From Anaerolinea sp. (GTDB taxonomy: Bacteria > Chloroflexota > Anaerolineae > UBA4142): a stretch of DNA of 17,852 nt. The notes beneath the pieces are model-generated. The model ran no database searches, was not told the origin of the DNA, and saw nothing but the letters and a program-made list of their open reading frames with translations. How positions within the stretch are numbered: position 1 is the stretch's first letter; each line of letters begins with the position of its first letter. The translations under genes and the position numbers were made by a program. The stretch spans positions 1 to 17,852 of the forward strand of contig DYLA01000041.1 in the NCBI GenBank assembly GCA_020722265.1, in the 5' to 3' direction. This document shows, one piece after another, positions 1 through 13,601 of the stretch.

Positions 1-17
1 AGGGGGCAAAGCCCCCT
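1..17. terminator. Perfect palindrome AGGGGGC-AAA-GCCCCCT at the window edge (7-bp GC stem, 3-nt loop), probably the tail of an upstream terminator/hairpin
   Basis: Read directly: positions 1-7 are the reverse complement of 11-17. No U-tract is visible because the feature is truncated by the window start. Confidence 0.3.
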
Positions 18-57
18 GAACCCCCATGTCCACGATTTACTGTGGTGCTACCCCTTT

Positions 58-86
58 TTGACGGATTTGACTAAATTGAGTATCAT
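58..86 (+). promoter_or_regulatory. Sigma70-like promoter TTGACG-N17-TATCAT upstream of phnD
   Basis: TTGACG at 58-63, 17-nt spacer, TATCAT at 81-86, each 5/6 to consensus. Predicted TSS ~93, about 100 nt before phnD. Confidence 0.35.
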
Positions 87-129
87 AGAGTAGACAAAGG
101 ACTCGAGCGAAAACTCATCCAAGGAGGTG

Positions 130-198
130 ATGCGAACGATTCAAGATCCCAACAGCGCGTCCATCTGGTACCTAATTCCAAGGAGGAGAAAGAGATGA
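130..198 (+). CDS. Candidate 22-codon upstream leader ORF (MRTIQDPNSASIWYLIPRRRKR), translationally coupled to phnD
   Basis: ATG at 130 lies 5 nt after AGGAGG (123-127). The stop TGA 196-198 overlaps the phnD ATG 195-197 (ATGA). The motif CCAAGGAGG occurs twice (118-127 and 177-186). No homology claim is made. Confidence 0.2.
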   Translation: MRTIQDPNSASIWYLIPRRRKR

Positions 199-1274
199 AG
201 AAACTCGTTCTGATCACCACGTTGTTGTTGGTGTTGCTCGCACTGGTTGCGTGCGCAGCGCCAACGCCCACCCCGACGCCGGTGCCACCCACCAAAGCGC
301 CGGAACCAACTAAGGCGCCGGTAGCGACCAAGCCCCCAGCCACGGCGACTGTTCCGCCAGCCAAGTGCGAGAAACTCCCCAATATGCCCACCGTCAAAGC
401 GGGCGAACTGGGCTCGCCGGAAAAACCGATCGTCATCACCTTCGTTCCTTCTGGCGATGTCCCGACGATCACCAAAGCCGGCAATGAAACGGTCGAGTGC
501 TTGAACAAGATCACCGGTTTGTCGTACAAGATCGAGGTCGGCACGTCGTACGCCGTCTCCATCGAGGCGATGGGCGCGGGCAAAGCACACGCCGGTTTCC
601 TGGCGACCTTTGCCGCGATCCTCGCGCGCGAAAAGTACGGCATCGAACCGGCGCTGGCTGCGACGCGCGCCTACGCAACGAATGATCTTGACCCGGACAA
701 GGGACTCAAGGGTCAGCAGAGCGACTTTTACAAAGGTCAGTTCATCACCAAGAAGGGCTCCGGCATCAAGAGCGTCGCCGATCTAAAGGGCAAGACCTTC
801 TGTGGTGTGGACGCGGCCTCCACCTCGGGTTGGATCATTCCGAGCATCAACCTCAAGGCGAATGGGATTGACCCGACGAAGGATCTAAAAGCAGTTACCT
901 ATGCGGGTTCGCACGACAACGTGGTGATTGCCGTGTACAAGGGCGATTGCGACGCGGGGGCGACGTACGTGGACGCGCGCGATTCGTCTGCCGTCAAAAA
1001 GGCATATCCCGATGTCAAAGACAAGGTCGAGCCGTTCTTCATCAGCACCCGCATCCCGAACGATGGTTTGCAGTTCATCAAGGGCTTTGATCCCAAACTG
1101 CGCGACGCGACCGTGGATGGTTTGCTCTCGATGATGGCAGACCCGGGCGGCAAAGCCGTAGTCAAACGCGCCTACAGCTACGACAACCTGAAGAAAGTGC
1201 CCGTCACCTTCTACGACGAATTCAAAGAACTGTTGAAGAAAGCGGGCGTGGACGCCGCGTCGTTGGTCAAATAA
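195..1274 (+). CDS. phnD: Phosphonate/phosphite ABC transporter substrate-binding lipoprotein (PhnD/SsuA/PtxB-type periplasmic binding protein)
   Basis: AGGAGG RBS at 181-186. Signal peptide with lipobox LVAC followed by a long Pro/Thr/Ala-rich tether. The body has the PhnD-like PBP fold. It is followed by the phnC and phnE genes. Confidence 0.8.
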   Translation: MKKLVLITTLLLVLLALVACAAPTPTPTPVPPTKAPEPTKAPVATKPPATATVPPAKCEKLPNMPTVKAGELGSPEKPIVITFVPSGDVPTITKAGNETVECLNKITGLSYKIEVGTSYAVSIEAMGAGKAHAGFLATFAAILAREKYGIEPALAATRAYATNDLDPDKGLKGQQSDFYKGQFITKKGSGIKSVADLKGKTFCGVDAASTSGWIIPSINLKANGIDPTKDLKAVTYAGSHDNVVIAVYKGDCDAGATYVDARDSSAVKKAYPDVKDKVEPFFISTRIPNDGLQFIKGFDPKLRDATVDGLLSMMADPGGKAVVKRAYSYDNLKKVPVTFYDEFKELLKKAGVDAASLVK

Positions 1275-1280
1275 ATCTCA

Positions 1281-1317
1281 AGACCTGGAAGGTCTTCTTC
1301 AAAGACCTTCCAGGTCT
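1281..1317. repeat. Palindromic hairpin repeat, copy 1: AGACCTGGAAGGTCT-tcttcaa-AGACCTTCCAGGTCT, in the phnD-phnC intercistronic gap
   Basis: Perfect 15-bp inverted repeat with a 7-nt loop, read directly. The same 15-mer pair recurs at 13479 and 16773, and a variant at 17783. Confidence 0.85.
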
Positions 1318-1331
1318 ATTGAAAATCCACC

Positions 1332-2090
1332 ATGCTCAAAGTTGAAAACCTCACCAAGGTCTATCCGAATGGGACCGTTGCGCTGCGCGACGTCAGTTTC
1401 GAGGTCGAAGATGGCGAGTTCCTCGCGGTCATCGGCTTGAGCGGTTCGGGCAAGTCCACGTTGATGCGGTGCATCAATCGCTTGATCGAGCCGACCTCGG
1501 GGCGAATCATCTGGGATGGCACCGATCTCACCGCGCTTTCCCCAGCCGAAATGCGCAAGATGCGCCGGCAAATCGGCATGGTCTTTCAACAGTTCAACCT
1601 TGTCAAACGTTCTTCGGTGATGACCAATGTGCTCGCCGGGCGATTGGGCTATGTCTCGCCGTATCAGAGTTTATTCAACTATTTTTCCTCAGCCGATCAC
1701 GCGCGCGCGCTGAAGAACCTCGAGCGGCTGGGGCTGCAGGACAAGGCGTACGTGCGCGCCGATTCGCTTTCGGGCGGGCAGCAGCAGCGCGTCGGGATTG
1801 CGCGCGCGTTGATGCAAGAGCCCAAGTTGATCCTCGCGGATGAGCCGGTCGCCTCGCTCGATCCGGTCTTGTCTCATTCGATCCTCAAGTACCTGGAGCA
1901 GATGAACAAGGAAGACGGGATCACTGTTCTGTGCTCGCTCCACTTTCTCGATCTGGTGCATCGCTATTCGACGCGTGCGATCGGATTGAAAGAAGGCAAA
2001 ATCGTTTTTCAGGGATTACCGCAAGAGATTGACGACACGCAGTTCAAGACGATCTTCGGGCAAGAGGCAGAGCGAGTTACGATACTCTAA
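1332..2090 (+). CDS. phnC: Phosphonate ABC transporter ATP-binding protein
   Basis: Walker A GLSGSGKST, signature LSGGQQQRVGIARAL, Walker B LILADEP. The PhnC-typical FQQFNLV..SV..NVL and RLIEPTSG motifs are present. Confidence 0.9.
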   Translation: MLKVENLTKVYPNGTVALRDVSFEVEDGEFLAVIGLSGSGKSTLMRCINRLIEPTSGRIIWDGTDLTALSPAEMRKMRRQIGMVFQQFNLVKRSSVMTNVLAGRLGYVSPYQSLFNYFSSADHARALKNLERLGLQDKAYVRADSLSGGQQQRVGIARALMQEPKLILADEPVASLDPVLSHSILKYLEQMNKEDGITVLCSLHFLDLVHRYSTRAIGLKEGKIVFQGLPQEIDDTQFKTIFGQEAERVTIL

Positions 2091-2092
2091 CC

Positions 2093-4051
2093 ATGAACCC
2101 ACCATCTTCTCATTCCCAAAACGCTTTGCTCGCAGCGGTATTCTCCCTGTGCATCCCCGGCGCAGGACAACTGTACCTGCGAAAGCGTGAGCGCGGGATT
2201 GGCATTCTGGTGGGCGCGCTCGCGCTGGCGTACCTGATCAATTGGGCGCTCGCGAATTTCCAGATGGAGGCGATCGCGCTCTGGCTGTGGCTGGTGTTCG
2301 CGCTATTTTGGCTGTGGAATGTTTTCGATGCGTATCGCCTCGCGCGCGGGCAAACTACCTACGACCGGCTGGGCTTGCTGCTGGCAATCGTCGTTATCTA
2401 CGCCATCGGTTGGCAAGTGACCGACATCAATCCGGATCGGCTCATCACGCGGTTCAAAGATGTGCAGGTCGTCTTCAAGGCGCTAGTCTATCCCGATTTG
2501 TTCACGCAAGAGGGAGGTTCCTGGCGACCGAGTGAGAACTTTGGGGACATTATCGGCAAGGTGGTAGACCGCCCCGCGCCGGATTGGCTGGTTCAGTTGG
2601 GATTGGCGCAGAAAGGCGCCCTGGTTCCGACGCCGGTGCTGGGTAAGATGGCTGAGACGGTCGCCATCGGTCTGATGGCAACGTTTCTGGCAATCATTTT
2701 TGCGATTCCACTCAGTTTCTTTGCCGCGCACAATATCATGTCGCGCGTTCCCGGCGGCACCGTCATCTACTACGCGATGCGGACGTTTCTGAACGTCGTC
2801 CGTTCCGTAGACACGATCATCTGGGGTCTCATCATCGTCGTCTGGGTTGGCTTGGGCTCGTTCGCCGGGACGCTGGCGCTGACGATTCACTCCATCGCCG
2901 CGCTGGGCAAGTTGTACTCCGAAGAGGTCGAGCACATTGATCCCGGTCCCATCGAAGCGATCACGGCGACCGGCGCGAATCTGCTGCAAGTCATTCGTTA
3001 CGCCGTGATCCCGCAAATCGTCCCGCCGTTCCTCGCCTACACGCTGTTGCGCTGGGACATCAATATGCGTATGGCGACGGTGGTCGGTTTCGTCGCGGGG
3101 GGCGGCATCGGCTTTTTCGTCGTCGAGACGATCCGCAAAGGCGGCTATGAACAGTACGCGGCGGCGTTGTGGGCAGTCGCCATCGTCATCATCCTCGTGG
3201 ACTATGTGAGCGCGAAATGGCGCGCGCGGATTTTGGCTGGAGAGGTCAAGGTCTCGGCGGAAGCGCCCAAGCCGTTCTACGCGTCGTTGCGCGGACTGTT
3301 TTGGCTGGTGCTCGGTCTCGCGGTGTTCGCGCTCTGCTGGCAACTTTCGGAGATTGATTTGCGCAAGTTGCTCGAGCCGTCGCCTACGTTCGTCAAGGTG
3401 GTGCGCGATTTCGTGGCGATTGACCTGAGTCCAGAGACGTTCGACACGGTGCTCAAGCAGATGCTCGTCACGATTTTCCAGGCGTTGCTCGCGACGACGT
3501 TGGGTGGATTGGCGGCGGTCCCGTTTAGTTTTCTTGCCGCGCGCAATTTGATGGGGGGCAGCGCGCTGACGCTGGTGGTGTATTACGTGGCGCGCAGCGT
3601 GTTGAATGTGCTGCGTTCGATCGAAGCGCTGTTGTACGTCGCGATCTTTGTGTTCTGGGTTGGCATTGGACCGTTCGCCGGGATGCTTGCGCTCGCCATT
3701 ACGACGTTTGCGCTCATCGGCAAACTCTTCTCGGAGGCGATTGAGAACATTGACCCCGGACCCACGGAAGCGATTGCGGCGACTGGCGCGACCGGCTTGC
3801 AGACGATCATCTACGCGATCTTGCCGCAGATCATTCCACCGTTCGTTTCGTATTTGATTTACCAATGGGACATCAACATCCGCATCGCGACGATTGTGGG
3901 ATTTGCGGGTGGCGGCGGCGTGGGTTTGCTCTTGAATACGTATTTCAGTATGCTGCAGTACCACAAAGCCGGTACGGTAGTGGCGATGATCGTCGTGGTG
4001 GTGGCGGCGATGGATTTTGCGAGCGCGAAGATTAGGGAGCGGATGGTGTAG
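2093..4051 (+). CDS. phnE: Phosphonate ABC transporter permease: two complete PhnE permease domains fused in one 652-aa polypeptide, plus a ~100-aa N-terminal two-helix membrane extension
   Basis: The PhnE signature (EAI.ATGA..Q.I.YA.IPQI.PPF....L.RWDIN.R.ATVVGF.GGGG.G) appears twice, around residues 290-340 and 540-600. The ATG lies 2 nt after the phnC stop. Confidence 0.8.
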   Translation: MNPPSSHSQNALLAAVFSLCIPGAGQLYLRKRERGIGILVGALALAYLINWALANFQMEAIALWLWLVFALFWLWNVFDAYRLARGQTTYDRLGLLLAIVVIYAIGWQVTDINPDRLITRFKDVQVVFKALVYPDLFTQEGGSWRPSENFGDIIGKVVDRPAPDWLVQLGLAQKGALVPTPVLGKMAETVAIGLMATFLAIIFAIPLSFFAAHNIMSRVPGGTVIYYAMRTFLNVVRSVDTIIWGLIIVVWVGLGSFAGTLALTIHSIAALGKLYSEEVEHIDPGPIEAITATGANLLQVIRYAVIPQIVPPFLAYTLLRWDINMRMATVVGFVAGGGIGFFVVETIRKGGYEQYAAALWAVAIVIILVDYVSAKWRARILAGEVKVSAEAPKPFYASLRGLFWLVLGLAVFALCWQLSEIDLRKLLEPSPTFVKVVRDFVAIDLSPETFDTVLKQMLVTIFQALLATTLGGLAAVPFSFLAARNLMGGSALTLVVYYVARSVLNVLRSIEALLYVAIFVFWVGIGPFAGMLALAITTFALIGKLFSEAIENIDPGPTEAIAATGATGLQTIIYAILPQIIPPFVSYLIYQWDINIRIATIVGFAGGGGVGLLLNTYFSMLQYHKAGTVVAMIVVVVAAMDFASAKIRERMV

Positions 4052-4099
4052 AAGGTGACGGGGGTGACAAGGTAACAGGGTGATGAGCAGAAGCGCGAT

Positions 4100-4128
4100 T
4101 TGCGTTCTTGGGGAAAAGAGCGCATAAT
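4100..4128 (+). promoter_or_regulatory. Candidate sigma70-like promoter TTGCGT-N17-CATAAT in the island leader
   Basis: TTGCGT 4100-4105, 17-nt spacer, CATAAT 4123-4128. A second weaker candidate is TTGACT 4142-4147 with AAGAAT 4167-4172 (N19). Confidence 0.25.
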
Positions 4129-4347
4129 TGTTGCTGTAAGTTTGACTTTGTCCCGCGGGAGCGGATAAGAATCTTGGTTTTAGTCTCCCATTCATATTGA
4201 CGGCGCGCCGACTTGGCATTGGGAGGCGAGGTTCATCAGTATTTGCGTTTGGCTGATTGCTGTTGCCGTTGGAGGCGATAGATGGTTAGCTGTTGCTCGT
4301 GGGGCAAGTCTCGTTTTGGCGCACGATGGGGTGTAAGCCATATGAAA

Positions 4348-4400
4348 CACCTGCTATTCGGCGCGTCTGGTAGACGCGTGGGGAGCAGGTGTTTTGTGTT
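4348..4400 (+). terminator. Compound stem-loop followed by a U-rich tract; an attenuator/intrinsic-terminator-like element in the 415-bp leader of the SPFH gene
   Basis: Outer stem CACCTGCT (4348-4355) pairs with AGCAGGTG (4384-4391). Inner perfect stem CGCGTCT (4362-4368) pairs with AGACGCG (4372-4378) around a 3-nt loop. It is followed by TTTTGTGTTT (4392-4400). Confidence 0.4.
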
Positions 4401-4466
4401 TGAAGGCGGCAGAATTGAGGCAAACGCACATTCGTTACCGTGCGGGTTCGTGGCAGGAGGGCGCCT

Positions 4467-5987
4467 ATGACACGCCGTGAGCGAATTGTATTCTATCTTG
4501 GACTGTTTGGAGTGTCGGTTTTTGTTTTGCTGCCGATGGTCCTCTCTGCCTGGCTCTTTTTCAGATTGGCGTCTTGGTATGTTGGCAAGATTCCAGAACG
4601 TCGGCTTCCGCTGACCGAGTTTGTTTCACCTTCGCATAAGAGATTCTGCGAGTGGCTCAGTGGGCTGTTGAACAGTCTTGGCGGCAAAATGCTTATATTG
4701 ACCTCCCTACTTGCCGGCGGAGGAGCCATCTTGGCAAAGAGTGTGTTGGGGTTGGATTTGCTATGGGGCTACTGGCTTGCCAACGTCGGTCAAGCGGTGG
4801 TCTACTTGTTTCTTTATCCATTCCTCAAGTATTCGTATTGGGAGTACTATCTGTCGCAAGCCGAGCCGGCGGCGCACTTGCTTGTCGGTGGGAGAGAGGA
4901 GTACGACAAACTGTCCGAGACGGACAGGAAGAAACTCACACGCCACGTTGCCGATGTGCTGATTGGCATCAACAAAGGCACTTGGGTAGTGAGCGGAGGT
5001 AAAGCCCAACTGTACAACGCCCCTGCTGGTTGGCTCGCCAAGTTTGGTGGACCGGGGGTGTTAGTGGTACAAGAAGGGCACGCGGTTGTGCTGGAACGAA
5101 GCGGAAAGATTTCGCGGGTAGTGGGATGCGGGTTGACCTTTTTGGAGCCGTTCGAGCGCGTTGGTTTAGTTGTCTATTTGGCGGCTGGGGGGGAGCATTT
5201 TCAGGTCAAACAAGTTGTCACGAAAGACAAAGTGGTGATTGATGAGATTGATTTGTATGTCTATCACAAAGTTGATCAAGGCGACAAATCGCGCCGGAAC
5301 GGTATGTTTCCGTTCGATGTCAAGATCATTCTGGAAAAGGTATGGACGCCGAAAGGATCCGATCGTGAGGATAAGAGTGCGGACTTGGGGGGAGCGGTGC
5401 GAGCGGTGACGGATACAGCTGTGCGTGATGTGATTGCTCAGTATAATCTGGCTGACTTTATAACCGCCACTGGAGACATTCGACAGAGACTCAAAGGCGA
5501 ATTCAAGGCAGCCATCGAACGCGTAACCGACGCCGCGATGGGAATCAAGATTATCGTGGTGGATGTTGGGTATATCAAGTTTCCTGCCGATGTACAGCAA
5601 GAACTCGTCGAAGTTGCAAAGGCGAAGGCGAAGAAGGAGAGGGTGCTGACCGATGCCGAAGCAGAGAGACAGGCAAAAATCACTATAGGCGAGGGAGAAC
5701 GTGAATACCTGCGCAAGCAAGGTGAAGGAAAAGCGTTGGCTGCACGCGAAGAGGGATTGGCAAAGGCGGAGGGCGAATCAGAACGTGTGCGCGAAATGCT
5801 GATCGTTCTCTCGCAACTGCCGATTGACGATAAAAGCAAGATGAATCTACTTAGGACGATATTTCGAGGCGATCAGTATCGCGAGGCGGTTCGAATGTTG
5901 ATGATGATAAGTCGCTCGGCGCGCGGGGCTGTCCCACGCGTGGCGGGTGATGGTTCTGTGGATACCTCACCTGCGGAGAGCATTTGA
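4467..5987 (+). CDS. SPFH/band-7 (stomatin/HflKC/flotillin-like) membrane protein with three N-terminal TM helices and a C-terminal Glu/Lys/Ala-rich coiled coil
   Basis: AGGAGG at 4455-4460 lies 6 nt before ATG 4467, preferred over the 4440 ORF-track start. The SPFH core is VVQEGHAVVLERSGKISRVVGCGLTFLEPFERV...VIDEIDLYVYHKV...GIKIIVVDVGYIKFPADVQQE...AKAKAKKERV..AEAERQAKI. GC content is visibly lower than in the flanks. Confidence 0.8.
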   Translation: MTRRERIVFYLGLFGVSVFVLLPMVLSAWLFFRLASWYVGKIPERRLPLTEFVSPSHKRFCEWLSGLLNSLGGKMLILTSLLAGGGAILAKSVLGLDLLWGYWLANVGQAVVYLFLYPFLKYSYWEYYLSQAEPAAHLLVGGREEYDKLSETDRKKLTRHVADVLIGINKGTWVVSGGKAQLYNAPAGWLAKFGGPGVLVVQEGHAVVLERSGKISRVVGCGLTFLEPFERVGLVVYLAAGGEHFQVKQVVTKDKVVIDEIDLYVYHKVDQGDKSRRNGMFPFDVKIILEKVWTPKGSDREDKSADLGGAVRAVTDTAVRDVIAQYNLADFITATGDIRQRLKGEFKAAIERVTDAAMGIKIIVVDVGYIKFPADVQQELVEVAKAKAKKERVLTDAEAERQAKITIGEGEREYLRKQGEGKALAAREEGLAKAEGESERVREMLIVLSQLPIDDKSKMNLLRTIFRGDQYREAVRMLMMISRSARGAVPRVAGDGSVDTSPAESI

Positions 5988-6025
5988 TTGGGTTGCAAGT
6001 TGGGCAATGGTGAGGGATGATAGGT

Positions 6026-7063
6026 ATGACCAAGAGATGTCCCAGCCCCACTCAATGTACCATAAACTTGCTGGCGCGCCGCAAAGAGGAATTTAGAGGC
6101 GCGACATGGAATCTGCTTTTGTCAGCCGGGCAGGATCTGTGCAAGGAAGATCAAGAGCGGGCTCGCCAAAGCTTTGACCAATCGCTCAAACTGGCTGAGG
6201 ATTTATCGGCGGTCAATGATCGGGACGCCGATTGCCTACGGGCGACGGCTTTAGCGTGCTTGGGTGCACTGGCTCTATGTCAAAATAAGGCGGATGACGC
6301 GCTCAGGTACTTTCAGCGGAGTGAAGCCGCCTTTGCTTCAAAGGGGGAGAGGTACGGTCAAGCTGTTGTGCTGTATGCGGAGGCGCACGCCTACAGGATC
6401 AAACAGGACTGGCGACGCGTTTTTTGTTGCTATGAGCAAAGTTCGCGCCTGTTGGCGTTTTTGGCGAGTGATCCGCTTACGGACTATACGCGTCAACTTG
6501 TGAGAGAAGAGCATCGCCAAACCGTTGCCGAATGGGAAAAGGATCTTGGCGTGGACGTGGAGCGAGGGGCAGGCAAGAGACTCGACTTCCGGTTGGGCTT
6601 CTTACCAGTCTTTGGTAAGATTGCGGCGGGTAATCCTTATCCTGTTCCAGAGGATGTAGAAAACTACATAGAAACGGATCGTTTTATCATTGATGGTAAG
6701 CCATATGCCATTGCCAAGAGCCAACATCTTACACTCAACTTTTCCCCTTACGTGATGTATGTAGCACTCTGTGTTAGCGGTGATAGCATGAATATGGCGG
6801 ACATAAATATCGGCGACTATGTGATCCTTCAAGTGCCATCGGCTGCCGGATTGCGGTTAGAACCGAAGACAGGCGATATAGTGGTGTTAGCATTTCCGGA
6901 GGAGAACACAGTGACGTTGAAACGTTGCCGGCGGAGTCCCAAGAAGATTACTTTCTATCCTGAGAGCACCAATCCCACGCACCTATCGTACGAATTCGAT
7001 GCGTCGCTAGATATACCTGTTAGGATCGTCGGCATCCACGTCGCCACCCTCAAGCCATTATGA
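6026..7063 (+). CDS. LexA-like S24 family autopeptidase with a non-HTH, Cys-rich TPR-like helical N-terminal domain (~190 aa)
   Basis: The C-terminal domain aligns motif-for-motif with LexA. LPVFGKIAAGNPYPV matches LPLVGRVAAGEPLLA, with the Ala-Gly scissile bond encoded at 6626-6631. The Ser nucleophile is in VSGDSM and the general-base Lys in TVTLKR. No HTH is recognisable in the N-terminal part. Start 6026 (GAGGGA 8 nt upstream) is preferred over 6017. The stop TGA 7061-7063 overlaps the psuG ATG. Confidence 0.8.
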   Translation: MTKRCPSPTQCTINLLARRKEEFRGATWNLLLSAGQDLCKEDQERARQSFDQSLKLAEDLSAVNDRDADCLRATALACLGALALCQNKADDALRYFQRSEAAFASKGERYGQAVVLYAEAHAYRIKQDWRRVFCCYEQSSRLLAFLASDPLTDYTRQLVREEHRQTVAEWEKDLGVDVERGAGKRLDFRLGFLPVFGKIAAGNPYPVPEDVENYIETDRFIIDGKPYAIAKSQHLTLNFSPYVMYVALCVSGDSMNMADINIGDYVILQVPSAAGLRLEPKTGDIVVLAFPEENTVTLKRCRRSPKKITFYPESTNPTHLSYEFDASLDIPVRIVGIHVATLKPL

Positions 7064-7983
7064 TGCTCCTCGCCCTCGAATCCACCCTCATCGCCCACGG
7101 ACTCCCGTATCCACACAACCTCGCCGCCGCGCGCGAACTGGAAGCCATCGCTCGCGCGCACGGCGCCCAGCCGCGTACCATCGCGATCATCGGCGGCGAA
7201 ATCAAAATCGGGTTGAGCGACGCGGAGTTGCAGCATCTCGCGCGGGCGCAGGGCGTGCTGAAACTCGCACGACGCGACCTCGCGATGGCGCTCGCACAGA
7301 AACGCGACGGCGCGACCACCGTCAGCGCGACGATGTTCCTCGCGCATCGCGCCGGCATCCGCGTTTTCGCCACCGGCGGGATTGGGGGCGTACACCGCAC
7401 GCCAAAGGATGAAGGCAGAAGGCAGAAGGATGAAAATGCCCCTTCGTCCTTCATCCCTCATCCTTCATCCTTCGATGTCTCTGCCGACCTTCCCGAACTC
7501 GCGCGCACTCCCGTCGCCGTCGTCTGCGCGGGCGCCAAAGCGATTCTCGATTTGCCCGCGACGCTCGAATGGCTAGAGACATTCGGCGTGCCGGTGCTCG
7601 GTTGGCAGACGGACGAATTCCCCGCGTTCTACTCGCGCGCGTCGGGCTTGCGCGTGCCCGCGCGCGTCGAGTCGGCGGAGGATGCCGCGCGCGTCATCCA
7701 GACACATTGGGAACTGGGCATGAGCAGCGGCGTCCTCGTCTGTGTGCCGATCCCGCACCAAGACGAGATTCCGCGCGCGGTGATCGAGCCGCACATCGAA
7801 CGCGCGCTGCGCGAGGCGGAAGAGCGACGCATCGTCGGCGGCGCGGTGACGCCGTTCGTGCTGGCGCGTTTGGCGGAGTTGACGCAAGGCGCGAGCGTGC
7901 GCGCGAACATCGCGCTGCTCAAGAACAACGTCGCCGTTGCGGCGGAAATCGCCCAAGCCCTGCAAGTTATTCGTCCAACCTGA
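7060..7983 (+). CDS. psuG: Pseudouridine-5'-phosphate glycosidase (PsuG / indigoidine synthase A-like); apparently N-terminally truncated, with a ~20-aa in-frame insertion
   Basis: LALESTLIAHGLPYP, FATGGIGGVHR, VVCAGAKAILDL..TLE.LETFGVPV and TPFVLARLAELT match the PsuG family. The ORF begins about 25 aa later than the recalled canonical PsuG sequence. An extra segment TPKDEGRRQKDENAPSSFIPHPSS lies between GGVHR and FDVSADL. Confidence 0.75.
   Translation: MMLLALESTLIAHGLPYPHNLAAARELEAIARAHGAQPRTIAIIGGEIKIGLSDAELQHLARAQGVLKLARRDLAMALAQKRDGATTVSATMFLAHRAGIRVFATGGIGGVHRTPKDEGRRQKDENAPSSFIPHPSSFDVSADLPELARTPVAVVCAGAKAILDLPATLEWLETFGVPVLGWQTDEFPAFYSRASGLRVPARVESAEDAARVIQTHWELGMSSGVLVCVPIPHQDEIPRAVIEPHIERALREAEERRIVGGAVTPFVLARLAELTQGASVRANIALLKNNVAVAAEIAQALQVIRPT
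7404..7474. repeat. AT-richer palindromic mini-element inserted in frame within psuG (GGATGAAGG/CCTTCATCC arm repeats)
   Basis: Left arm GGATGAAGG (7407-7415) and GGATGAAAA (7428-7436). Right arm CCTTCGTCC (7441-7449), CCTTCATCC (7448-7456) and CCTTCATCC (7462-7470). The arms are mutually complementary, centred on CCCC 7439-7442. Confidence 0.5.
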
Positions 7984-8009
7984 AACTTCAACCGGCAGCG
8001 GAGATTCAG

Positions 8010-8669
8010 ATGTCAGATCCTCTTGCCCTCCTCATCACCTTTCTCTACGTCGCGTGCATCCTCGCACTCGGCGAGGGATTGCGGCGCAGGCTGAAATTCT
8101 CGGTCGAGTTCACGCGCAAGTTCGTCCACATCGCCGTCGGGATGATCGCGTTCCCGCTCGTCGCGCTGTTTCAGGCTTGGCCATTTGCCATCATCCCGCC
8201 GCTCGTCTTCATCATCGTCAATTACGTTTCGTATCGCCGCCAGATTTTCGCGGGGATGGAGACTGGCGAGCGGGGACAACTCGGCACGGTCTATTTCCCG
8301 ATTTCGTTTTCGATTCTCATTCCGCTTTTGTGGTCGCAGCCCGCGTGGCTCGTCGCCTCGCTGATGCCGATGACGTGGGGCGACGCGTTCGCGGCGATTG
8401 TGGGCAAACGCTTGGGCACGCACAAATTCACGGTGCTGGGGCAGACGCGCTCGATCGAGGGTTCGCTGGCGATGTTCGCGTTCAGTTTCATCGCGACCTT
8501 TGGCGCGCTCGTTGTGTTCGCCCAGCCACTCGCCGCAAGTCTCGCGCTCGCGTTCGTCACGGCGCTCGTGGCGACGCTCGTCGAAGCATTTTCGCCGTTC
8601 GGGATAGACAACCTCACCGTGCCCTTATCATCGGCAATCGCGCTCGTCGCGCTCGAAACGTTGATGTAG
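8010..8669 (+). CDS. Integral membrane CTP-dependent polyprenol/phytol/dolichol-kinase-like protein (CdsA / CTP_transf_1 superfamily)
   Basis: Multi-TM protein with the GDAFAAIVGKRLG...RSIEGSLAMF motif characteristic of the phytol/dolichol kinase and CdsA superfamily. ATG 8010 lies 26 nt after psuG. The upstream part of track ORF 7569.. is an Arg-rich overlap artefact. Confidence 0.55.
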   Translation: MSDPLALLITFLYVACILALGEGLRRRLKFSVEFTRKFVHIAVGMIAFPLVALFQAWPFAIIPPLVFIIVNYVSYRRQIFAGMETGERGQLGTVYFPISFSILIPLLWSQPAWLVASLMPMTWGDAFAAIVGKRLGTHKFTVLGQTRSIEGSLAMFAFSFIATFGALVVFAQPLAASLALAFVTALVATLVEAFSPFGIDNLTVPLSSAIALVALETLM

Positions 8670-8675
8670 GCAACG

Positions 8676-8706
8676 AAAAACCCGTCTTCACCGCAGACGG
8701 GTTTTT
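8676..8706. terminator. Bidirectional Rho-independent terminator between the convergent kinase-like gene and clpC
   Basis: AAAAACCCGTCT (8676-8687), loop TCACCGC, AGACGGGTTTTT (8695-8706). A 12-bp stem is flanked by an A-tract on one side and a T-tract on the other, so it can terminate both strands. Confidence 0.8.
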
Positions 8707-8710
8707 TTGT

Positions 8711-11209
8711 CTACGTCGGCATCTCCGCCGAAGGCATCTCCACCGCGACGTGCGCTAGGTCAGGCGCAGTCTCCTTCAATCGAAATACGATGCCGGCGCG
8801 ATCATCCGCGTCCACGATGATGTGTTGCCCGGCTTTGAATTCTCCAGCCAGCAACTTGTGCGAGAGCGGCGATTCGATCCGGCGCTGCAACAATCGGCGC
8901 AGCGGGCGCGCGCCGAATTGCGGATCGTACCCTTCCCGCGCCAACCACTCGCGCGCCGCTTCGGTCAACTCGATTTCGATCTCCTGCTCTTTCAGCCGCG
9001 CCGCGATCTCTTTCATTTCCAAGTCCACGATGCGTTTGATCTGCTCGCGATTGAGCACGTGGAAAATGATCACCTCGTCAATACGATTGAGGAACTCGGG
9101 ACGGAAAGTGCGCTTGAGCGATTCTTCGATCTCGGCGTAAGTCTTTTCCACTTTTCTGTCGGCGACTTGGCCGGGCGCGTGGAAACCGAGCGTTCCGCCT
9201 TTTTGCGCGAACTCGGTGCCGATGTTCGAGGTCATAATGATCACGGTGTTGCGAAAATCTACCGTGTGTCCCTGTCCATCGGTCAGCTGTCCCTCCTCGA
9301 GCACCTGGAGCAGCGTGTTCCAAACGTCCGGATGCGCCTTTTCGATTTCATCGAAGAGAATGACTTGGTAGGGTCGCCGGCGCACCGCTTCGGTGAGTTG
9401 TCCCCCCTCGTCGTAGCCGACGTATCCCGGGGGCGCGCCGATCAAACGCGAGGCGGTGTGTCGCTCGCTGTATTCGCTCATATCCACGCGAAAGAGCGCG
9501 TCCGGATCATCGAACAAGAACTCGGCGAGCGCGCGCGCGAGCGCGGTCTTGCCGACGCCGGTCGGTCCAAGAAAGATGAAAGAGCCGGTGGGACGCTTGG
9601 GGTCGGCGAGTCCAGAACGCGCGCGGCGAATCGCATCGCTGATAGCGTTGATCGCTTCGTCCTGACCCACGATGCGCTCGTGCAGCCGCGCTTCCATCTG
9701 AAGGAGTTTGTCCGCTTCCGTCTGCATCATCCGCGTGACCGGGATGCCGGTCCACTTGGCGACTACTTCGGCGATGTCTTTTTCGCTGACGACTTCATCC
9801 AGTCCTTTTTCTCTTTGCCACGCCGCGCGTTTTTCCGCAAAGACCGCTTCGAGCGCCAGTCGCTCGGCGCGCGATTTGACGGCGGCTTCATAGTCGCGCG
9901 CCGTCGCCGCGTCTTCTTCCGCCTTTTGCAACTCGCGCAGATGCATCTTCATTTGCTTCAACTCGGGCGGCATCGAATAGATCGCAATCCGCAACTTGGC
10001 GGCGGCTTCGTCCATCAGGTCAATCGCCTTGTCCGGCAAATAGCGGTCGCTGACGTACCGATGCGAGAGCCGCGCGGCCGCGTCGAGTGCGCTGTCGTTG
10101 ATCTTGACTTGATGATGCTGTTCGTACCGATCGCGCAGCCCGCGCAGCATCGCCATCGTCGCTTCGACACTCGGTTCCGCGACGTACACCGGCGAAAAAC
10201 GGCGCTCGAGCGCGGCGTCCTTTTCGATGTGATTGCGGTACTCGTCGAGCGTCGTCGCGCCGACGCACTGCAACTCGCCGCGCGCGAGCGCGGGCTTCAT
10301 CATATTCGACGCGTCGATCGCACCCATCGCCGCGCCCGCGCCGACAACGGTGTGCACTTCGTCAATGAACAGGATGATTTCTCCTTTGGCGTTGTGGATC
10401 TCATCGAGCGCGGCTTTGAGGCGTTCTTCGAATTCACCCCGAAAGCGCGAGCCCGCCACCATCGCGCCCAAATCGAGTTGCACGACGCGGCGATTCATCA
10501 GCGGTTCTGGCACGTCGCCGGTGACGATTTTCTGCGCCAGCCCTTCGACGATGGCGGTCTTGCCGACGCCCGGTTCGCCGATGAGCACGGGGTTGTTCTT
10601 GGTGCGGCGCGAAAGAATTTGGATCACGCGCAGGATTTCTTCGTCCCGCCCGATCACCGGGTCGAGTTTGCCTTGGCGGGCGAGCGCGGTCAGATCGCGC
10701 GAGTAACGGTCGAGGGTGCGGTACTTGCCCTCGGCGCGCGGATCGGTGACGCGCGCGCCGCCGCGAATTTCGGGAAGGAGGCGCAGGATGCGCTCGCGTG
10801 TCAAGCCGCAATCGTTGAGGATGCGCCGCGCCGCGCCGTCGCGTTCGCCCGCGAGCGCGAGCAGGAGATGTTCGGTCGAAACGTAATCGTCTTGGAGGCG
10901 TGCCGCTTCTTCGTTAGCCGCGTCCACGAGCCGCTTGACGCGCGGGGTGATGTAGACTTGGTCGCCCATATAAGGCGGATAGTACGCCTTGGGACTCATC
11001 TGCAAGAGTTCGTCTACGCGTTGATGTAACGTATCCGCGTCCACGTTCATACGGTCGAGAATCATCTGGACTGTACCGCCGGTTTGTTCGATCAGCGCGA
11101 GCAACAGATGCTCGGCATCGAGTTGCGAATGGCGATAGCGTTGGAGGATTTCGTGAGCGCGCGCAAACGCATCTTGCGCGCGTTCGGTAAATCGGTCTGG
11201 TCGCATCAT
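8711..11209 (-). CDS. clpC: ATP-dependent Clp protease ATP-binding subunit / Hsp100 chaperone, ClpC-type (two Clp_N repeats, two AAA+ modules, short UVR-like linker)
   Basis: Walker A GEPGVGKT (D1) and GPTGVGKT (D2). The ~95-aa D1-D2 linker resembles the ClpC UVR region (..[14 protein letters not shown]..) rather than the long ClpB M-domain. GAGAGGA RBS lies 5 nt before the ATG. Confidence 0.8.
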
Positions 11210-11233
11210 AGGCGTCCTCTCTTTCCGCCGATA

Positions 11234-11262
11234 ATTATAACCCCAAGCGGGTGCGGCGTCAA
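11234..11262 (-). promoter_or_regulatory. Minus-strand sigma70-like promoter TTGACG-N17-TATAAT for clpC
   Basis: Reverse complement: TTGACG (11262-11257), 17-nt spacer, TATAAT (11239-11234). Predicted TSS ~11227, giving an ~18-nt 5'UTR containing the RBS. Confidence 0.45.
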
Positions 11263-11281
11263 TTCGATTTCAGATTTATGA

Positions 11282-11310
11282 TTGCGGATTTCCGATTTTG
11301 TGCGTATAAT
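11282..11310 (+). promoter_or_regulatory. Plus-strand promoter TTGCGG-N17-TATAAT; the TSS would fall 0-2 nt before the pncC ATG (leaderless)
   Basis: TTGCGG 11282-11287, spacer 17, TATAAT 11305-11310. The ATG of the next gene is at 11319 with no SD sequence. Confidence 0.4.
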
Positions 11311-11318
11311 GCCTGCCG

Positions 11319-11810
11319 ATGATTGACTGTAACGAACCGCTCGAAGTCGTCGTGGGCAGGTTGCTCGTCGAGAAAAAGCAGACGCTTGCCATCGCCGAAT
11401 CTTGCACCGGTGGCTTGCTCACGCACCGGCTCACGAACGTGCCCGGGAGTTCGGCGTACGTCATCGCCTCCGTCATCGCGTACGCCTACGAAGCCAAAGT
11501 CGCCGCGCTCGGCGTGTCCTGGGACACGCTCAACCGATTCGGCGCGGTCAGCGCGGAAACGGCAACCGCGATGGCGCGCGGCGCGCGCGCGAAATTCTCT
11601 GCTACGCTCGGCTTGGCGATTACTGGCATCGCGGGACCGGGAGGCGGCACGCCGGAAAAGCCGGTGGGTCTGGTGTACCTCGCGCTCGCGGACGCGGACG
11701 ATGTTATCGTTGAACGGCACCTTTGGAGCGGCGACCGCGTGCGGAACAAGGAGCAGAGCGCGCAAGCCGCGCTCGAATTGTTGTGCCGTCATCTAAAACG
11801 TAAAACGTGA
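11319..11810 (+). CDS. pncC: CinA C-terminal domain protein / nicotinamide-nucleotide amidohydrolase PncC
   Basis: LAIAESCTGGLL...SSAYVIASVIAYAYEAK...GLAITGIAGPGGGT..KPVGLVYLAL is the CinA_C signature. Confidence 0.8.
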   Translation: MIDCNEPLEVVVGRLLVEKKQTLAIAESCTGGLLTHRLTNVPGSSAYVIASVIAYAYEAKVAALGVSWDTLNRFGAVSAETATAMARGARAKFSATLGLAITGIAGPGGGTPEKPVGLVYLALADADDVIVERHLWSGDRVRNKEQSAQAALELLCRHLKRKT

Positions 11811-11829
11811 AACGAAAAAAGGAGCCGCC

Positions 11830-12675
11830 GTGAACATCTTCCAAGCCATCCTCCTGGGCATCGTGCAAGGTCTCACCGAGTTCATTCCGATTTCCAGTTC
11901 GGCGCACCTCGTCATCATTCCTTGGCTGTTCCAGTGGGACGAGCCCGGTCTCGCATTCGACGTGGCACTGCATCTGGGGACGCTCGTCGCGCTGCTTTGG
12001 TTTTTCGCGGCGGATTGGGCGCGGCTGTGGCGCGCCGGCGTCGCGAGCATCATCGAACGCAAGGTGGGCGACGATGTGGATCGCCGGCTGGCGTGGCTGC
12101 TGGCAGTCGGCACTATCCCAGGCGCGCTCGTGGGCGCCTTGGCGGAAAGCCAGGTCGAGGAGTTGTTTCACACGCCGAATGCGCCCCATCGCGCGGAGGC
12201 GATGGTCGCGATGGGTGTCATCATCGCGCTGTTAGGCGCGGCGCTCTTCGTCGCCGAACGGATCGCGCGCCACACGCGCTCGCTGAAACACGTTTCGCTC
12301 AAGGATGCGATTGTGATCGGTTGCGCGCAGGCGCTCGCGATTTTCCCAGGGGTCTCGCGCTCGGGCGCGACGATCACCGCCGGTCTCGCGCTCGGTTTGG
12401 AGCGCGCGGCTGCCGCGCGTTTTTCGTTCCTTCTCTCCGCGCCGATCATCGCGGGCGCGGGCGCCAAGAGCGCGTTCGATCTGGCGCGCGCGGGGATTGC
12501 GCCAGCGGAGTTGGCGCTCTTTGCCCTCGGCGCGCTAGCGGCGGCGGTCAGCGGTTATTTGTGCATCAGGTTCTTGCTCCGCTTTTTGCAGCGCCACTCG
12601 ACCGATGTCTTTGTGTACTATCGCTGGCTGCTCGCGGCGTTCATCATCGTCGTTGCGGTGATGCGGGGGAATTGA
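11830..12675 (+). CDS. uppP: Undecaprenyl-diphosphate phosphatase (BacA/UppP)
   Basis: GTG start with AAAAAAGGAG RBS. The N-terminus MNIFQAILLGIVQGLTEFIPISSSAHL is the UppP hallmark. Multi-TM. Confidence 0.9.
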   Translation: MNIFQAILLGIVQGLTEFIPISSSAHLVIIPWLFQWDEPGLAFDVALHLGTLVALLWFFAADWARLWRAGVASIIERKVGDDVDRRLAWLLAVGTIPGALVGALAESQVEELFHTPNAPHRAEAMVAMGVIIALLGAALFVAERIARHTRSLKHVSLKDAIVIGCAQALAIFPGVSRSGATITAGLALGLERAAAARFSFLLSAPIIAGAGAKSAFDLARAGIAPAELALFALGALAAAVSGYLCIRFLLRFLQRHSTDVFVYYRWLLAAFIIVVAVMRGN

Positions 12676-12680
12676 TCGTC

Positions 12681-13478
12681 GTGCTAAGAATTTTACCGCT
12701 GGGATTGTTCGCCGTGCTGCTCGCCGCGTGTGCGGCAATGCCAACGCCGCGTGCGCCGACGCGGCTCACGTTCGCCGGTTCCGATTCGATGGAGTCGCTC
12801 GCGCGATCGCTCGCCCACGCGTACGCCGAGTCGCATTCCGGGGTGTCGTTCACGGTGCAGACATCGAACTCGGCGAACGGTTTGCGCGCCGCGCGCGAAA
12901 TCTCCGGGACGATTGGAATGGTCGCCCGCGCGATCCAGCCCGCCGAACTGGAGCGGTTGCGCGCGGTCGTGATGGCGCGCGATGGCATCGCCATCATCGT
13001 CAACAAGAGCAATCCCATCAACGCGATTATGCGCGCGCAAATCGTCGAAGTGTTTGCCGGGCAAATCCTCACGTGGCCCACCGGCGCGCTCGCCGGCAAG
13101 AGCATCGTCGTCGTCAGCCGCGAGGAGGGGTCGGGGACGCGTGACGCGTTCGAGGCGATGGTGATGGGGGGGACGCGCGTGACGCGCACGGCGGTGGTGA
13201 TGCCGAATCAAGCCGCGATGGTGGATTTCGTCGCGCGCACGCCGGAGGCGATCGGCTATTGTTCGATGGGCGCGGTTACCCAAGACGTGCGCGCGCTGGT
13301 CGTGGACGACGTGCTGCTATCACCCCAGACCGTCGAAAGCAGACAGTATCCGTTCATCCGCGCGTTTGCGTTCGTCATTCCGCAGCCGGCGTCGCCGGCG
13401 GTCGAGGATTTCGTCGCGTTCGCGCTCGGCGCGGAGGGGCAGCGGATTGTCGCGCAAAAGTTTGGGAGAGCGCCGTGA
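12681..13478 (+). CDS. PstS-like phosphate-binding periplasmic lipoprotein (PBP superfamily), orphan, with no pstCAB adjacent
   Basis: GTG 12681 lies 5 nt after the uppP stop. Signal/lipobox LFAVLLAACAA. RLTFAGSDSMESLARSLA...GTIGMVARA...SREEGSGTRDAFE resembles the PstS family. The long track ORF from 11922 is an out-of-frame overlap with uppP. Confidence 0.65.
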   Translation: MLRILPLGLFAVLLAACAAMPTPRAPTRLTFAGSDSMESLARSLAHAYAESHSGVSFTVQTSNSANGLRAAREISGTIGMVARAIQPAELERLRAVVMARDGIAIIVNKSNPINAIMRAQIVEVFAGQILTWPTGALAGKSIVVVSREEGSGTRDAFEAMVMGGTRVTRTAVVMPNQAAMVDFVARTPEAIGYCSMGAVTQDVRALVVDDVLLSPQTVESRQYPFIRAFAFVIPQPASPAVEDFVAFALGAEGQRIVAQKFGRAP

Positions 13479-13511
13479 AGACCTGGAAGGTCTCCAAGAC
13501 CTTCCAGGTCT
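13479..13511. repeat. Palindromic hairpin repeat, copy 2: AGACCTGGAAGGTCT-cca-AGACCTTCCAGGTCT, immediately after the pstS-like stop codon
   Basis: Perfect 15-bp inverted repeat with a 3-nt loop, starting 1 nt after TGA 13476-13478. A 37-nt stretch is identical to copy 3. Confidence 0.85.
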
Positions 13512-13601
13512 GGTCTTTCGAAATTTACACACATTTTACATTCCCCTAACAACAAAATAGTCAATTCCGTTTATGATGTCGTCAGAATGGAGGAAACGGT
13601 T

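Follow-up and report, generated by a model that had tools for sequence, protein, structure and literature searches.

What is encoded between phnE and psuG, at positions 4052-7063 of the 17,852-nt stretch of DNA analysed here (the window), and do the two genes found there form a functional pair? The region stands out by its composition: GC is 0.523 (52.3%) versus 0.576 at 1-4051 and 0.612 at 7064-17852, and it is the minimum of the whole stretch, with every other 3012-nt segment at 0.572 or above. At the right edge GC steps from 0.465 at 6601-7000 to 0.662 at 7001-7400. A preliminary description had given an AT-rich island of 45-50% GC against 65% in the flanks; the lowest GC and the low GC3 stand, but these values fit the right edge only, so the contrast is too large on average. 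The compositional signal resides in third codon positions, GC3 being 0.57 in the SPFH gene and 0.55 in the S24 gene versus 0.73-0.82 in twelve other genes scored in the window. The region contains:

4052..4466, + strand: 5' leader, the non-coding spacer after the phnE stop (nhmmer, covariance model R1)
4467..5987, + strand: gene of an SPFH/Band_7 membrane scaffold protein, 506 aa, ATG start with AGGAGG 7 nt upstream; longest ORF from GTG 4440 (Pfam Band_7, AF2, Foldseek)
6026..7063, + strand: gene of a TPR-S24 protein, 345 aa, a predicted LexA-like autoprotease of the cytosol that lacks a DNA-binding domain; longest ORF from ATG 6017 (348 aa)
7060..7063, + strand: 3' cassette boundary, with ATGA shared by the S24 stop (TGA) and the psuG start

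Two co-directional genes, 29-38 nt apart, are present as described earlier, but "exactly two genes" omits the 415-nt spacer at 4052-4466, which also has a conserved leader. The overlap of S24 stop and psuG start is found in L004, L011 and L087 as well. Around the slot lie core genes, those of the phn transporter, psuG and clpB. The 17-kb contig has 15 called genes, none of them an integrase, transposase or other mobility gene; tRNA genes are absent from the surroundings of the island, and repeats there are short, at chance level and never flank it as direct repeats.

In eight relatives, blastn homology stops at 4051 (phnE stop) and restarts at 7063-7069 (psuG start). One of the eight, L022, shares 86-90% nucleotide identity with the window in its flanks, yet its SPFH protein, a fusion with WD40 repeats, has only 35% identity. 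SPFH identity shows no correlation with phnE identity (rho -0.31), and GC3 is lowered within the cassette in most loci examined. The pair also occurs in unrelated contexts (L008, L089, L087); of the S24 partner, L017 has a decayed copy and L018 none. Judging from these comparisons, the region is one allele of a fast-diverging, horizontally exchanged cassette at a fixed phnE-psuG slot of Anaerolineae-type Chloroflexota, and exchange appears to take place via recombination in the conserved flanks. The previous reading as acquired DNA therefore stands for a foreign or mobile cassette, bounded by the homology breaks at 4051 and 7063-7069, but not for a one-off insertion.

The first protein of the cassette comprises the following parts:

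4473..4886, + strand: membrane region at the N-terminus, formed by two helical hairpins at aa 3-40 and aa 58-140 (AF2)
4980..5579, + strand: SPFH domain proper (aa 172-371), extended on its N-terminal side by a beta-rich segment (Pfam, AF2, Foldseek)
5586..5813, + strand: coiled-coil helix of 76 residues, aa 374-449 (AF2), as in cage-forming SPFH proteins
5922-5984, + strand: disordered tail, aa 486-506, preceded by short helices (AF2)

Its proposed SPFH identity is upheld by a Pfam Band_7 (PF01145) match above the gathering score (67.3 bits, cut-off 23.6, E 2.4e-18; aa 209-409 numbered from the 4440 start) and by an AF2 model (pLDDT 79.8) in which an SPFH fold is followed by a coiled coil. 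Best Foldseek matches of this model are HflK/C, stomatin, QmcA-YbbJ, prohibitin, erlin and flotillin, with a probability of 1.00 for HflK/C, stomatin, QmcA, prohibitin and flotillin. All named proteins among its 41 homologues belong to Chloroflexota/Anaerolineae MAGs. The "3-TM" topology given before is approximate: Kyte-Doolittle hydrophobic segments lie at aa 4-39 and aa 71-99, and the model places two helical hairpins at the N-terminus. The SPFH domain would lie on the cytoplasmic side of the membrane. The long coiled coil of the model implies a cage or ring assembly, and the protein is accordingly modelled as a membrane-anchored member of the predicted cage-forming kind; it may itself be the membrane effector. 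SPFH proteins partnered with close TPR-S24 relatives share with it the tail motif GDQYR(D/E)AxRMW...GRSxRG, and a comparison of these C-terminal tails yields no conserved mimic of an Ala-Gly cleavage site.

The second protein is divided as follows (numbering from 6017):

6047..6547, + strand: TPR domain, eight helices, aa 11-177
6599..7057, + strand: S24 catalytic/dimerisation domain, aa 195-347, with Ser257 at 6785-6787 and Lys302 at 6920-6922
6626..6631, + strand: predicted self-cleavage site Ala204-Gly205 (FGKIAA|GNPYP; family alignment)

The C-terminal part has the fold of the LexA C-terminal domain and matches Pfam Peptidase_S24 (PF00717) above the gathering score (34.9 bits, cut-off 23.3, aa 197-340), in agreement with the LexA/UmuD-like domain described from the sequence. 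Ser257 (GxSM) and Lys302, in the context GxSM ... (V/L)KR, do not vary among the 20 sequences aligned, E. coli LexA being one of them; in the same alignment the cleavage-site Ala is found in 20/20 and the Gly in 19/20, the exception being L028. The domain carries the complete LexA-type Ser/Lys autoprotease apparatus and is predicted to be catalytically competent. A disordered linker with the Ala-Gly site joins it to the TPR domain, and this canonical position of the site together with the invariant Ala argues for cleavage in cis. From Ala-Gly to Ser the family spans 52-57 aa versus 34 in LexA, owing to a family-specific insert of about 20 aa that is missing from generic phage S24 proteins. The N-terminal DNA-binding domain is replaced, as had been claimed, with a four-repeat TPR domain in place of the HTH. 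This domain is not "Cys-rich" as a family feature, because just one cysteine (C81) is invariant.

Homologues bear the automatic JGI name "SOS-response transcriptional repressor LexA", and weak PHROG matches, confined to the S24 domain, lead to repressor and UmuD-like families. It is nonetheless scarcely credible that an ordinary LexA or prophage repressor with an overlooked HTH adjoins an unrelated membrane protein by chance: the LexA model TIGR00498 scores 35.9 bits versus a cut-off of 110.95 and aligns with the C-domain alone, the N-domain is TPR, and the pairing recurs in 12 loci and in fusions. The TPR-S24 family was not found in IMG/VR viral contigs.

An SPFH gene lies upstream of the family S24 gene in 12 of 12 loci having upstream sequence, namely L001, L004, L008, L012, L014, L016, L022, L086, L087, L089, L028 and, with an intervening TIR gene, L011. 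SPFH-S24 fusions form at least 16 protein clusters, and those examined are each preceded by a second SPFH gene. In a third variant (TPR-TM-SPFH), the TPR domain is found on a second SPFH domain: the N-domains of TPR-S24 in L022 and of TPR-TM-SPFH in L023 share 45% identity (E 4e-50), and L088 gives a like result (50%). All three pairwise fusions of the domains therefore exist (TPR-S24, TPR-TM-SPFH and SPFH-S24). SPFH identity tracks partner identity (rho +0.77, p 2e-6). The gene-neighbourhood comparison thus bears out the expectation that the pair co-occurs elsewhere, and it indicates that both genes are co-inherited and co-diverging, forming a recurrent module and no chance adjacency. The family is small and found solely in uncultured Chloroflexota. 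As presumed from the outset, no description of an SPFH-S24 pairing turned up in the literature searched; the cassette is apparently new to description.

The gene content of related loci agrees with the defence or conflict flavour suggested earlier, as TIR, CHAT, SLOG, EAD, WD40, STAND and radical-SAM genes lie in or beside related cassettes. L011 has the gene order SPFH-TIR-TPR/S24, and the phnE-psuG slot of L018 is occupied by SLOG + TIR-EAD8-CHAT + SPFH. WD40-SPFH fusions are present in L022 and L024, a STAND NTPase gene adjoins in L016, and radical SAM + AAA_16/TPR adjoin the SPFH pair in L010, L025, L088 and L091. In total, the vocabulary of the sister loci includes TIR, CHAT, SLOG, EAD8/EAD11, TCAD9, WD40, TPR, STAND NTPases and radical SAM. 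In PADLOC searches, Thoeris/Argonaute TIR models pick up the TIR neighbours in related loci, and pVip models the radical-SAM neighbours; the pVip matches are limited to the radical-SAM core and may be generic. Neither window protein matches any PADLOC-DB 2.0 model at E <= 0.1. The window's own cassette has no NTPase, EAD or TIR and no further recognised effector, and a STAND-like ORF comes nearest at 16740-17774, about 9.7 kb off and past eight core genes; an NTPase linked to effector/adaptor (EAD) domains is seen in the sister loci L010, L016, L025, L088 and L091. Because the alleles are interchangeable as in defence hotspots and the relatives carry TIR, CHAT and STAND genes, the cassette is a candidate conflict system of filamentous bacteria.

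Kaur, Burroughs, Iyer and Aravind (eLife 2020; PMC7159879) name "Band7-like" domains among superstructure-forming modules in effector position. Their NTP-dependent conflict systems of multicellular prokaryotes occur in the same type of organism, filamentous Chloroflexota, and their domain vocabulary matches that of the sister loci; PMC7159879 makes no mention of S24/LexA or of an SPFH + S24 pair. The window cassette differs in lacking their NTPase and EAD. A functional analogy, without homology, also exists to bacterial gasdermins, which together with their associated protease are protease-gated membrane effectors. The likeness is the proposed proteolytic switch of a membrane-acting protein; in the window the predicted cut falls in the protease itself and not in the membrane protein.

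SPFH proteins are found universally, and little is understood of what they do in bacteria outside their partnerships with FtsH and NfeD. Classically they are paired with proteases (HflK/C-FtsH, stomatin-NfeD). Like the SPFH-NfeD operons (E. coli QmcA-YbbJ; Pyrococcus stomatin PH1511 + NfeD protease PH1510), the cassette consists of two genes for a membrane SPFH protein and a Ser/Lys-type peptidase partner, and QmcA and stomatin structures match the SPFH model. Unlike in these operons, the partner lacks a ClpP/S49 fold, an OB-fold NfeD domain and a membrane segment, the SPFH gene comes first, and the predicted cleavage target is the partner itself rather than SPFH. NfeD (PF01957) is absent among the 15 called genes of the contig and from most related loci; the sole NfeD observed (L090) lies two genes away, with an opposite-strand gene between. 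The S24 protein may be termed an NfeD replacement by analogy only. HflK/HflC are the best structural matches (Foldseek E 1e-11), with a similarly long coiled coil, and the HflK/HflC pair is resembled by sister variants with two adjacent SPFH paralogues; the window SPFH differs in its several N-terminal membrane helices, instead of one, and no FtsH is nearby. An HflK/HflC equivalog was rejected on scores (TIGR01933 44.2 versus 159.4, NF008181 17.9 versus 660, NF008259 12.9 versus 427 bits).

These classical pairings, whose SPFH members are also the best structural matches, would suit a housekeeping role in membrane quality control, in which an SPFH cage and a Ser/Lys peptidase in an NfeD-like role trim SPFH or clients in trans under heat or envelope stress. 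The window has no NfeD gene of its own, the pair is widespread within one bacterial class, and both the slot among core genes, adjoining clpB, and the overlap of S24 stop and psuG start are compatible with a housekeeping operon too. We nevertheless consider this role unlikely. Cis cleavage is favoured by the canonical position of Ala-Gly and its invariant Ala, and a conserved Ala-Gly-like site is missing from the SPFH tail; allele replacement uncoupled from 86-90% identical flanks, low GC3, partner swapping, decay and loss are not normal for housekeeping genes, and relatives of the cassette associate repeatedly with TIR, CHAT, STAND and EAD genes.

The reading of an exchanged SPFH + TPR-S24 cassette that acts as a TPR-docked self-cleaving switch, with inter-genomic conflict as its most likely role, is one to which we give an even chance. 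This role would be abortive infection or defence, or a kin-protective cell arrest in filamentous bacteria. At rest, the TPR domain would dock the S24-dimerised partner on the cytoplasmic face or the tail of the SPFH assembly. Upon a stress or infection signal the S24 domain would cut its own Ala204-Gly205 bond, and the TPR adaptor would come away from the dimeric core. The SPFH scaffold would then change its assembly state, which would either affect the membrane directly or, in larger relatives, free or activate effectors encoded alongside, TIR for example; sister cassettes encode separate TIR or CHAT effectors. The signal may be RecA-ssDNA filaments, by analogy with LexA, UmuD and lambda cI, or alternatively a ligand in the TPR groove. 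Possible as well, though less likely than not, is the fuller reading of an undescribed immune or abortive-infection module, in which an SPFH membrane cage is gated by a TPR-S24 self-cleaving adaptor. The window would contain the minimal form of two genes, which in larger forms would be joined by a STAND NTPase, a radical-SAM enzyme (viperin-like?), small peptides and TIR/CHAT effectors; the module would have its own leader-peptide/terminator attenuator, with alleles swapped at a fixed hotspot.

Self-cleavage of S24 proteins inactivates DNA-binding repressors or activates UmuD, and the characterised self-cleavers LexA, UmuD and lambda cI respond to RecA-ssDNA. The window protein differs from these members of MEROPS S24 in its four-repeat TPR domain in place of a winged HTH, and in being encoded with a membrane SPFH protein, to which relatives are fused. 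Its full LexA-type catalytic apparatus with cleavage site, and the presence of uvrA near the syntenic locus in L004, would equally suit an SOS-type output outside defence, in which RecA-stimulated TPR-S24 cleavage remodels SPFH membrane domains, for example for septation arrest or a membrane change in filamentous Chloroflexota following DNA damage. This output is quite unlikely, as the insert of about 20 aa between cleavage site and Ser is missing from RecA-responsive relatives, and hypervariability and immune-type neighbours are unexpected for a core SOS function. If the self-cleaving switch is real, a classic switch would gain a new output, its S24 chemistry being coupled to a membrane scaffold and to a TPR domain that binds proteins. 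The partner, genetically fused to SPFH in some lineages, offers a concrete handle on the regulation of cage assembly, and the phnE-psuG cassette is a testable candidate for a new stress or phage-defence switch in filamentous bacteria.

The leader in front of the SPFH gene contains:

4147..4159, + strand: 13-nt motif TTTGTCCCGCGGG with palindromic core CCCGCGG, conserved, close to the leader 5' end
4282..4470, + strand: short upstream ORF of 62 codons, with GGAGG at 4271-4275 and a stop overlapping the SPFH ATG
4346..4402, + strand: long hairpin AAACACCTGC...GCAGGTGTTT with a T-run after it, resembling an intrinsic terminator or attenuator (RNAalifold)

R1/nhmmer matches lie upstream of the first cassette gene in L018, L004, L016, L017, L011, L022, L012, L023, L086, L088 and L087. 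The leader belongs to the cassette, because L087 and L088 have it too although a gene other than phnE precedes it there. The pattern TTTGNCCCGCGGG occurs in exactly one copy each in L001 (the window) and its duplicate contigs L002 and L003, and in L011, L012, L018, L022, L086, L087 and L088, located in the spacer upstream of the cassette in the loci examined. The upstream ORF varies from 11 to 62 codons in length; seven loci conserve its Shine-Dalgarno sequence, ATG/GTG start and opening ~7 codons (MVSCCSW-like), consistent with a leader peptide or an RNA-level constraint. That the long (62-codon) form is coding is doubtful. The leader has no Rfam match. In RNAalifold the hairpin, which is kept in the R1 hits, comprises 25 pairs, 7 of them with compensatory changes; the fold of the window sequence has -74 kcal/mol (z = -5.5). 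The leader probably holds transcription of the cassette attenuated until translation or another input changes, and it is a conserved, uncatalogued candidate cis-regulatory RNA.

The window, a contig from an uncultured member of the Chloroflexota, is identical to contig CDHVFE010000028 of GCA_975271335.1, and its phn genes share 85-86% nucleotide identity with those of 'Anaerolineales bacterium UBA4826'. The cassette between phnE and psuG possesses two genes, one for an SPFH/Band_7 membrane protein and one for a LexA-like S24 partner with a TPR N-domain (TPR-S24), in the following order:

phnD, then phnC
2093-4051, phnE, fused double gene
4052-4466, spacer of 415 nt
4467-5987, SPFH gene
6026-7063, S24 gene
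7060-7983, psuG
8010-8669, gene for a 219-aa protein of unknown function
beyond it, clpB on the opposite strand

The GC content of 4052-7063 is 0.523, against 0.576 in the left flank and 0.612 in the right flank, and all other 3-kb stretches of the window reach at least 0.572. The contrast resides in the third codon positions (GC 0.55-0.57 in the cassette vs 0.73-0.82 elsewhere). The preliminary description had put the cassette lower and its flanks higher; its figures hold at the right-hand edge only, and not for the cassette average. A strong excess of G over C on the plus strand extends over about 3800-6800 (skew +0.15 to +0.37; spacer 0.32, SPFH gene 0.23), and the cassette of the homologous locus L004 has a similar, weaker skew.

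The S24 partner protein scores 34.9 bits against Peptidase_S24 and has a weak TPR_12 match. Its structure model (pLDDT 79.2; residues counted from the ATG at 6017) comprises:

aa 11-177, eight helices
aa 179-191, disordered linker
aa 195-347, beta domain

No HTH was detected in this protein and it also failed the lexA equivalog cut-off, which excludes an ordinary LexA or prophage repressor; the earlier claim of a non-HTH N-domain is borne out, its helices being of TPR type. The same domain had been called Cys-rich, which fails as a family trait: C81 is the sole invariant Cys, and a Cys-rich metal-binding N-domain is rejected on this ground. When 1.84 billion representatives were searched with an N-domain profile, it matched thousands of multi-repeat TPR proteins and only about nine single-stretch clusters (344-375 aa); seven of the seven new ones checked in Pfam are TPR+S24. 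Ala204-Gly205, Gly255-x-Ser257-Met and Lys302 are conserved family-wide and align with E. coli LexA. Between scissile bond and Ser the family possesses about 20 extra residues, an insert lacking in generic phage S24 proteins. The partner protein has no hydrophobic segment and is therefore taken to be cytosolic.

The SPFH protein matches Pfam Band_7 with 67 bits. Its AlphaFold model (pLDDT 79.8) comprises:

aa 3-40 and 58-140, two N-terminal helical hairpins
aa 172-371, SPFH domain with a beta-rich extension
aa 374-449, helix of 76 residues, followed by a disordered tail

Foldseek groups the protein with HflK/C, stomatin, QmcA-YbbJ, prohibitin, erlin and flotillin, all of them cage-forming; it remains below both the HflK and the HflC equivalog cut-offs. 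That the S24 protein cuts an Ala-Gly mimic in the tail of the SPFH protein was considered and rejected: the window possesses PRVAGDG, but the residue before Gly varies (A, I, S, T). Tail motifs of the SPFH proteins differ between groups with different partner types.

Both families are small. The S24 family has 14 matches in 5.8 billion clusters; the SPFH family has 41 matches, and all organism-named ones are Chloroflexi or Anaerolineae genomes. The S24/SPFH family is narrow and known solely from uncultured organisms. Neither cassette protein matches a PADLOC model, in PHROGs they match generic S24 and SPFH-like entries only, and searches of viral and metagenome sequences by means of the S24 alignment returned almost only generic HTH-S24 proteins of 215-240 aa without SPFH neighbours.

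The pairing of SPFH and S24 genes noticed in the window is recurrent. An SPFH-family gene lies upstream of every family S24 gene that has upstream sequence, a count that covers the window locus (L001), the homologous loci L004, L008, L012, L014, L016, L022, L086, L087 and L089, the divergent L028, and L011, where a TIR gene intervenes between the two. Band_7 and Peptidase_S24 are furthermore joined in single proteins in no fewer than 16 clusters (90% identity), and such a fusion is preceded by a second SPFH gene in all five contexts examined. In six loci (L015, L020, L021, L023, L024, L088) the partner slot is occupied by a 448-500-aa protein in place of TPR-S24. The N-terminal part of this protein and the TPR domain of the S24 partners are homologous (L022 vs L023: 45% identity over 173 aa, E 4e-50; L088 vs L023: 50% identity), and the C-terminal part is an SPFH-like domain preceded by a Pro-rich linker and two membrane helices. 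Since all three domain pairings (TPR-S24, TPR-SPFH and SPFH-S24) occur, classic fusion evidence suggests that TPR, S24 and SPFH domains act in one complex. Divergence of the SPFH protein and of its partner is correlated (rho +0.77, p 2e-6, eight loci).

A housekeeping role, with the S24 protein as an NfeD-like protease partner, is a rival reading that we consider unlikely; by family the cassette proteins belong to S24 and SPFH, and match none of LexA repressor, HflK/C, NfeD operon or PADLOC systems. In locus L090 a long NfeD gene (11452-12759), which encodes a ClpP protease and an NfeD domain, is located two genes away from a pair of SPFH and SPFH-S24 genes, with an opposite-strand MFS gene in between and no SPFH gene of its own adjoining; this NfeD could be a shared partner.

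In eight relatives with common flanks, nucleotide homology ends at the phnE stop (4051) and restarts at the psuG start (7063-7069). The flanks of L022 are 86-90% identical to the window, whereas its cassette is unalignable; the SPFH proteins are 35% identical and that of L022 possesses about 700 aa of WD40 repeats at its N-terminus. Between window and L004, the SPFH proteins are 44% and the S24 proteins 53% identical, vs 61-83% for flanking proteins. SPFH identity and phnE identity are uncorrelated (rho -0.31, 28 locus pairs), and GC3 of the cassette is lowered in most loci examined. The pair also occurs in unrelated contexts, namely beside a TetR/ABC operon (L008), beside dnaA (L089) and with a different left flank (L087). 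These comparisons support the acquired DNA proposed earlier in a modified form, namely as swapped content of an old slot. No integrase and no tRNA or tmRNA as integration target were detected in the window, and flanking direct or inverted repeats are 14-25 nt matches at chance level only; the simplest reading is therefore replacement of the cassette by recombination in the conserved flanks. In L017 the partner (6257-6925) is an internally deleted TPR-S24 of the L016 type, 222 aa long. Its Ala-Gly site and catalytic Ser are lost, and the module is thus decaying in this lineage. The cassette boundary coincides with an ATGA overlap of S24 stop and psuG start (7060-7063), likewise present in L004 (11062-11065), L011 (9274-9277) and L087 (9619-9622); psuG may share a transcript, or be coupled in translation, with whichever cassette allele precedes it.

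The spacer (4052-4466) includes DNA that differs less between loci than the coding DNA of the cassette does. It contains:

4147-4159, 13-nt motif TTTGTCCCGCGGG, exactly one copy in each of eight distinct loci
from 4282, short ORF with conserved GGAGG, start codon and about 7 conserved codons
4346-4395, terminator-like hairpin of 25 pairs, seven of them compensatory (4346-4402 with its T-run)

The ORF varies from 11 to 62 codons across loci. A covariance model detects the leader in eleven loci, in each case ahead of the first cassette gene; among them are L087 and L088, which have a gene other than phnE on the upstream side. The leader is missing from L008 and the SPFH-S24 fusion clade. A consensus promoter/terminator scan gave counts not above shuffles and missed the long hairpin. 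The hairpin as a mere terminator of the phn operon is a weakened explanation, because the element is also present after a divergent Mur ligase gene (L087) and a radical-SAM gene (L088). Its distribution points instead to a cassette-borne element, probably of attenuator type. As Rfam has no match in the whole window, and none for the spacer even at permissive threshold, the leader is a candidate new cis-regulatory element.

Several related loci possess additional genes at the cassette. In the same slot, L011 combines SPFH, a 268-aa TIR protein (7359-8165) and TPR-S24, and L018, which lacks the S24 partner, has an unknown gene, genes for a SLOG and a TIR-EAD8-CHAT protein (1483-5959), and the SPFH gene. 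WD40 propellers are fused to the SPFH protein in L022 (3577-7146) and L024 (1305-4535), and a STAND-type NTPase gene lies downstream of the S24 gene in L016. In four independent loci (L010, L025, L088, L091), the SPFH pair has a radical-SAM gene and an AAA_16/TPR STAND gene beside it, accompanied by TIR, CHAT, EAD11-trypsin or TCAD9-kinase genes; these sets suggest a larger system, with the window pair as its minimal form. Small ORFs occur between the radical-SAM and SPFH genes of L088 and L091. Among the PADLOC models, those for Thoeris/Argonaute TIR match the TIR neighbours, and those for prokaryotic viperin (pVip) match the radical-SAM neighbours, the latter in the radical-SAM core only, which may be generic similarity. 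The neighbours share their domain vocabulary with the conflict systems of Kaur et al. (PMC7159879), where Band7-like domains appear solely as scaffolding modules and S24 or LexA are not mentioned. The literature searched on SPFH combined with S24, LexA, defence or TIR yielded nothing relevant; although the components are from known families, their S24+SPFH combination was not found there, nor were the fusion triangle, hotspot behaviour or leader.

Domain anatomy, intact catalytic residues, co-inheritance, fusions, allele exchange, neighbourhood and leader are shown by the analysis. In the mechanism we propose, the S24-dimerised partner would be docked by its TPR domain on a cytoplasmic SPFH assembly, and a signal would cause self-cleavage at Ala204-Gly205. 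Cleavage would uncouple the adaptor and alter the state of the scaffold, giving an output at the membrane or through an effector. The trigger might be RecA-ssDNA, by analogy, or a TPR ligand. To our knowledge, all characterised self-cleaving S24 proteins are triggered by RecA-ssDNA; for this family we hold that trigger possible, if doubtful. An SOS output, not defence, would suit the LexA-like catalytic residues, and is improbable in our view; the neighbours in related loci include TIR, CHAT and STAND genes. What the preliminary description observed is borne out, its numbers corrected; its reading as a damage- or phage-responsive module has partial support.

Among the flanking genes, phnE (2093-4051) encodes a fused double permease of 652 aa with two BPD_transp_1 stretches and a weak DUF5683-like N-terminal match, and the fusion is kept in all relatives. 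The 219-aa gene downstream of psuG has no match in Pfam or PHROG; its DNA is conserved in L011, L012 and L018 (72-77% nucleotide identity), and it therefore looks like a conserved core gene, function unassigned. An ORF on the plus strand reaching the contig end (16740-17774), about 9.7 kb from the cassette, has ATPase_2/nSTAND2-type (STAND NTPase) matches, and no sign of linkage to the cassette was seen. DUF1800 and DUF1501 genes adjoin at 13587-16601, a pair that is kept in L004.
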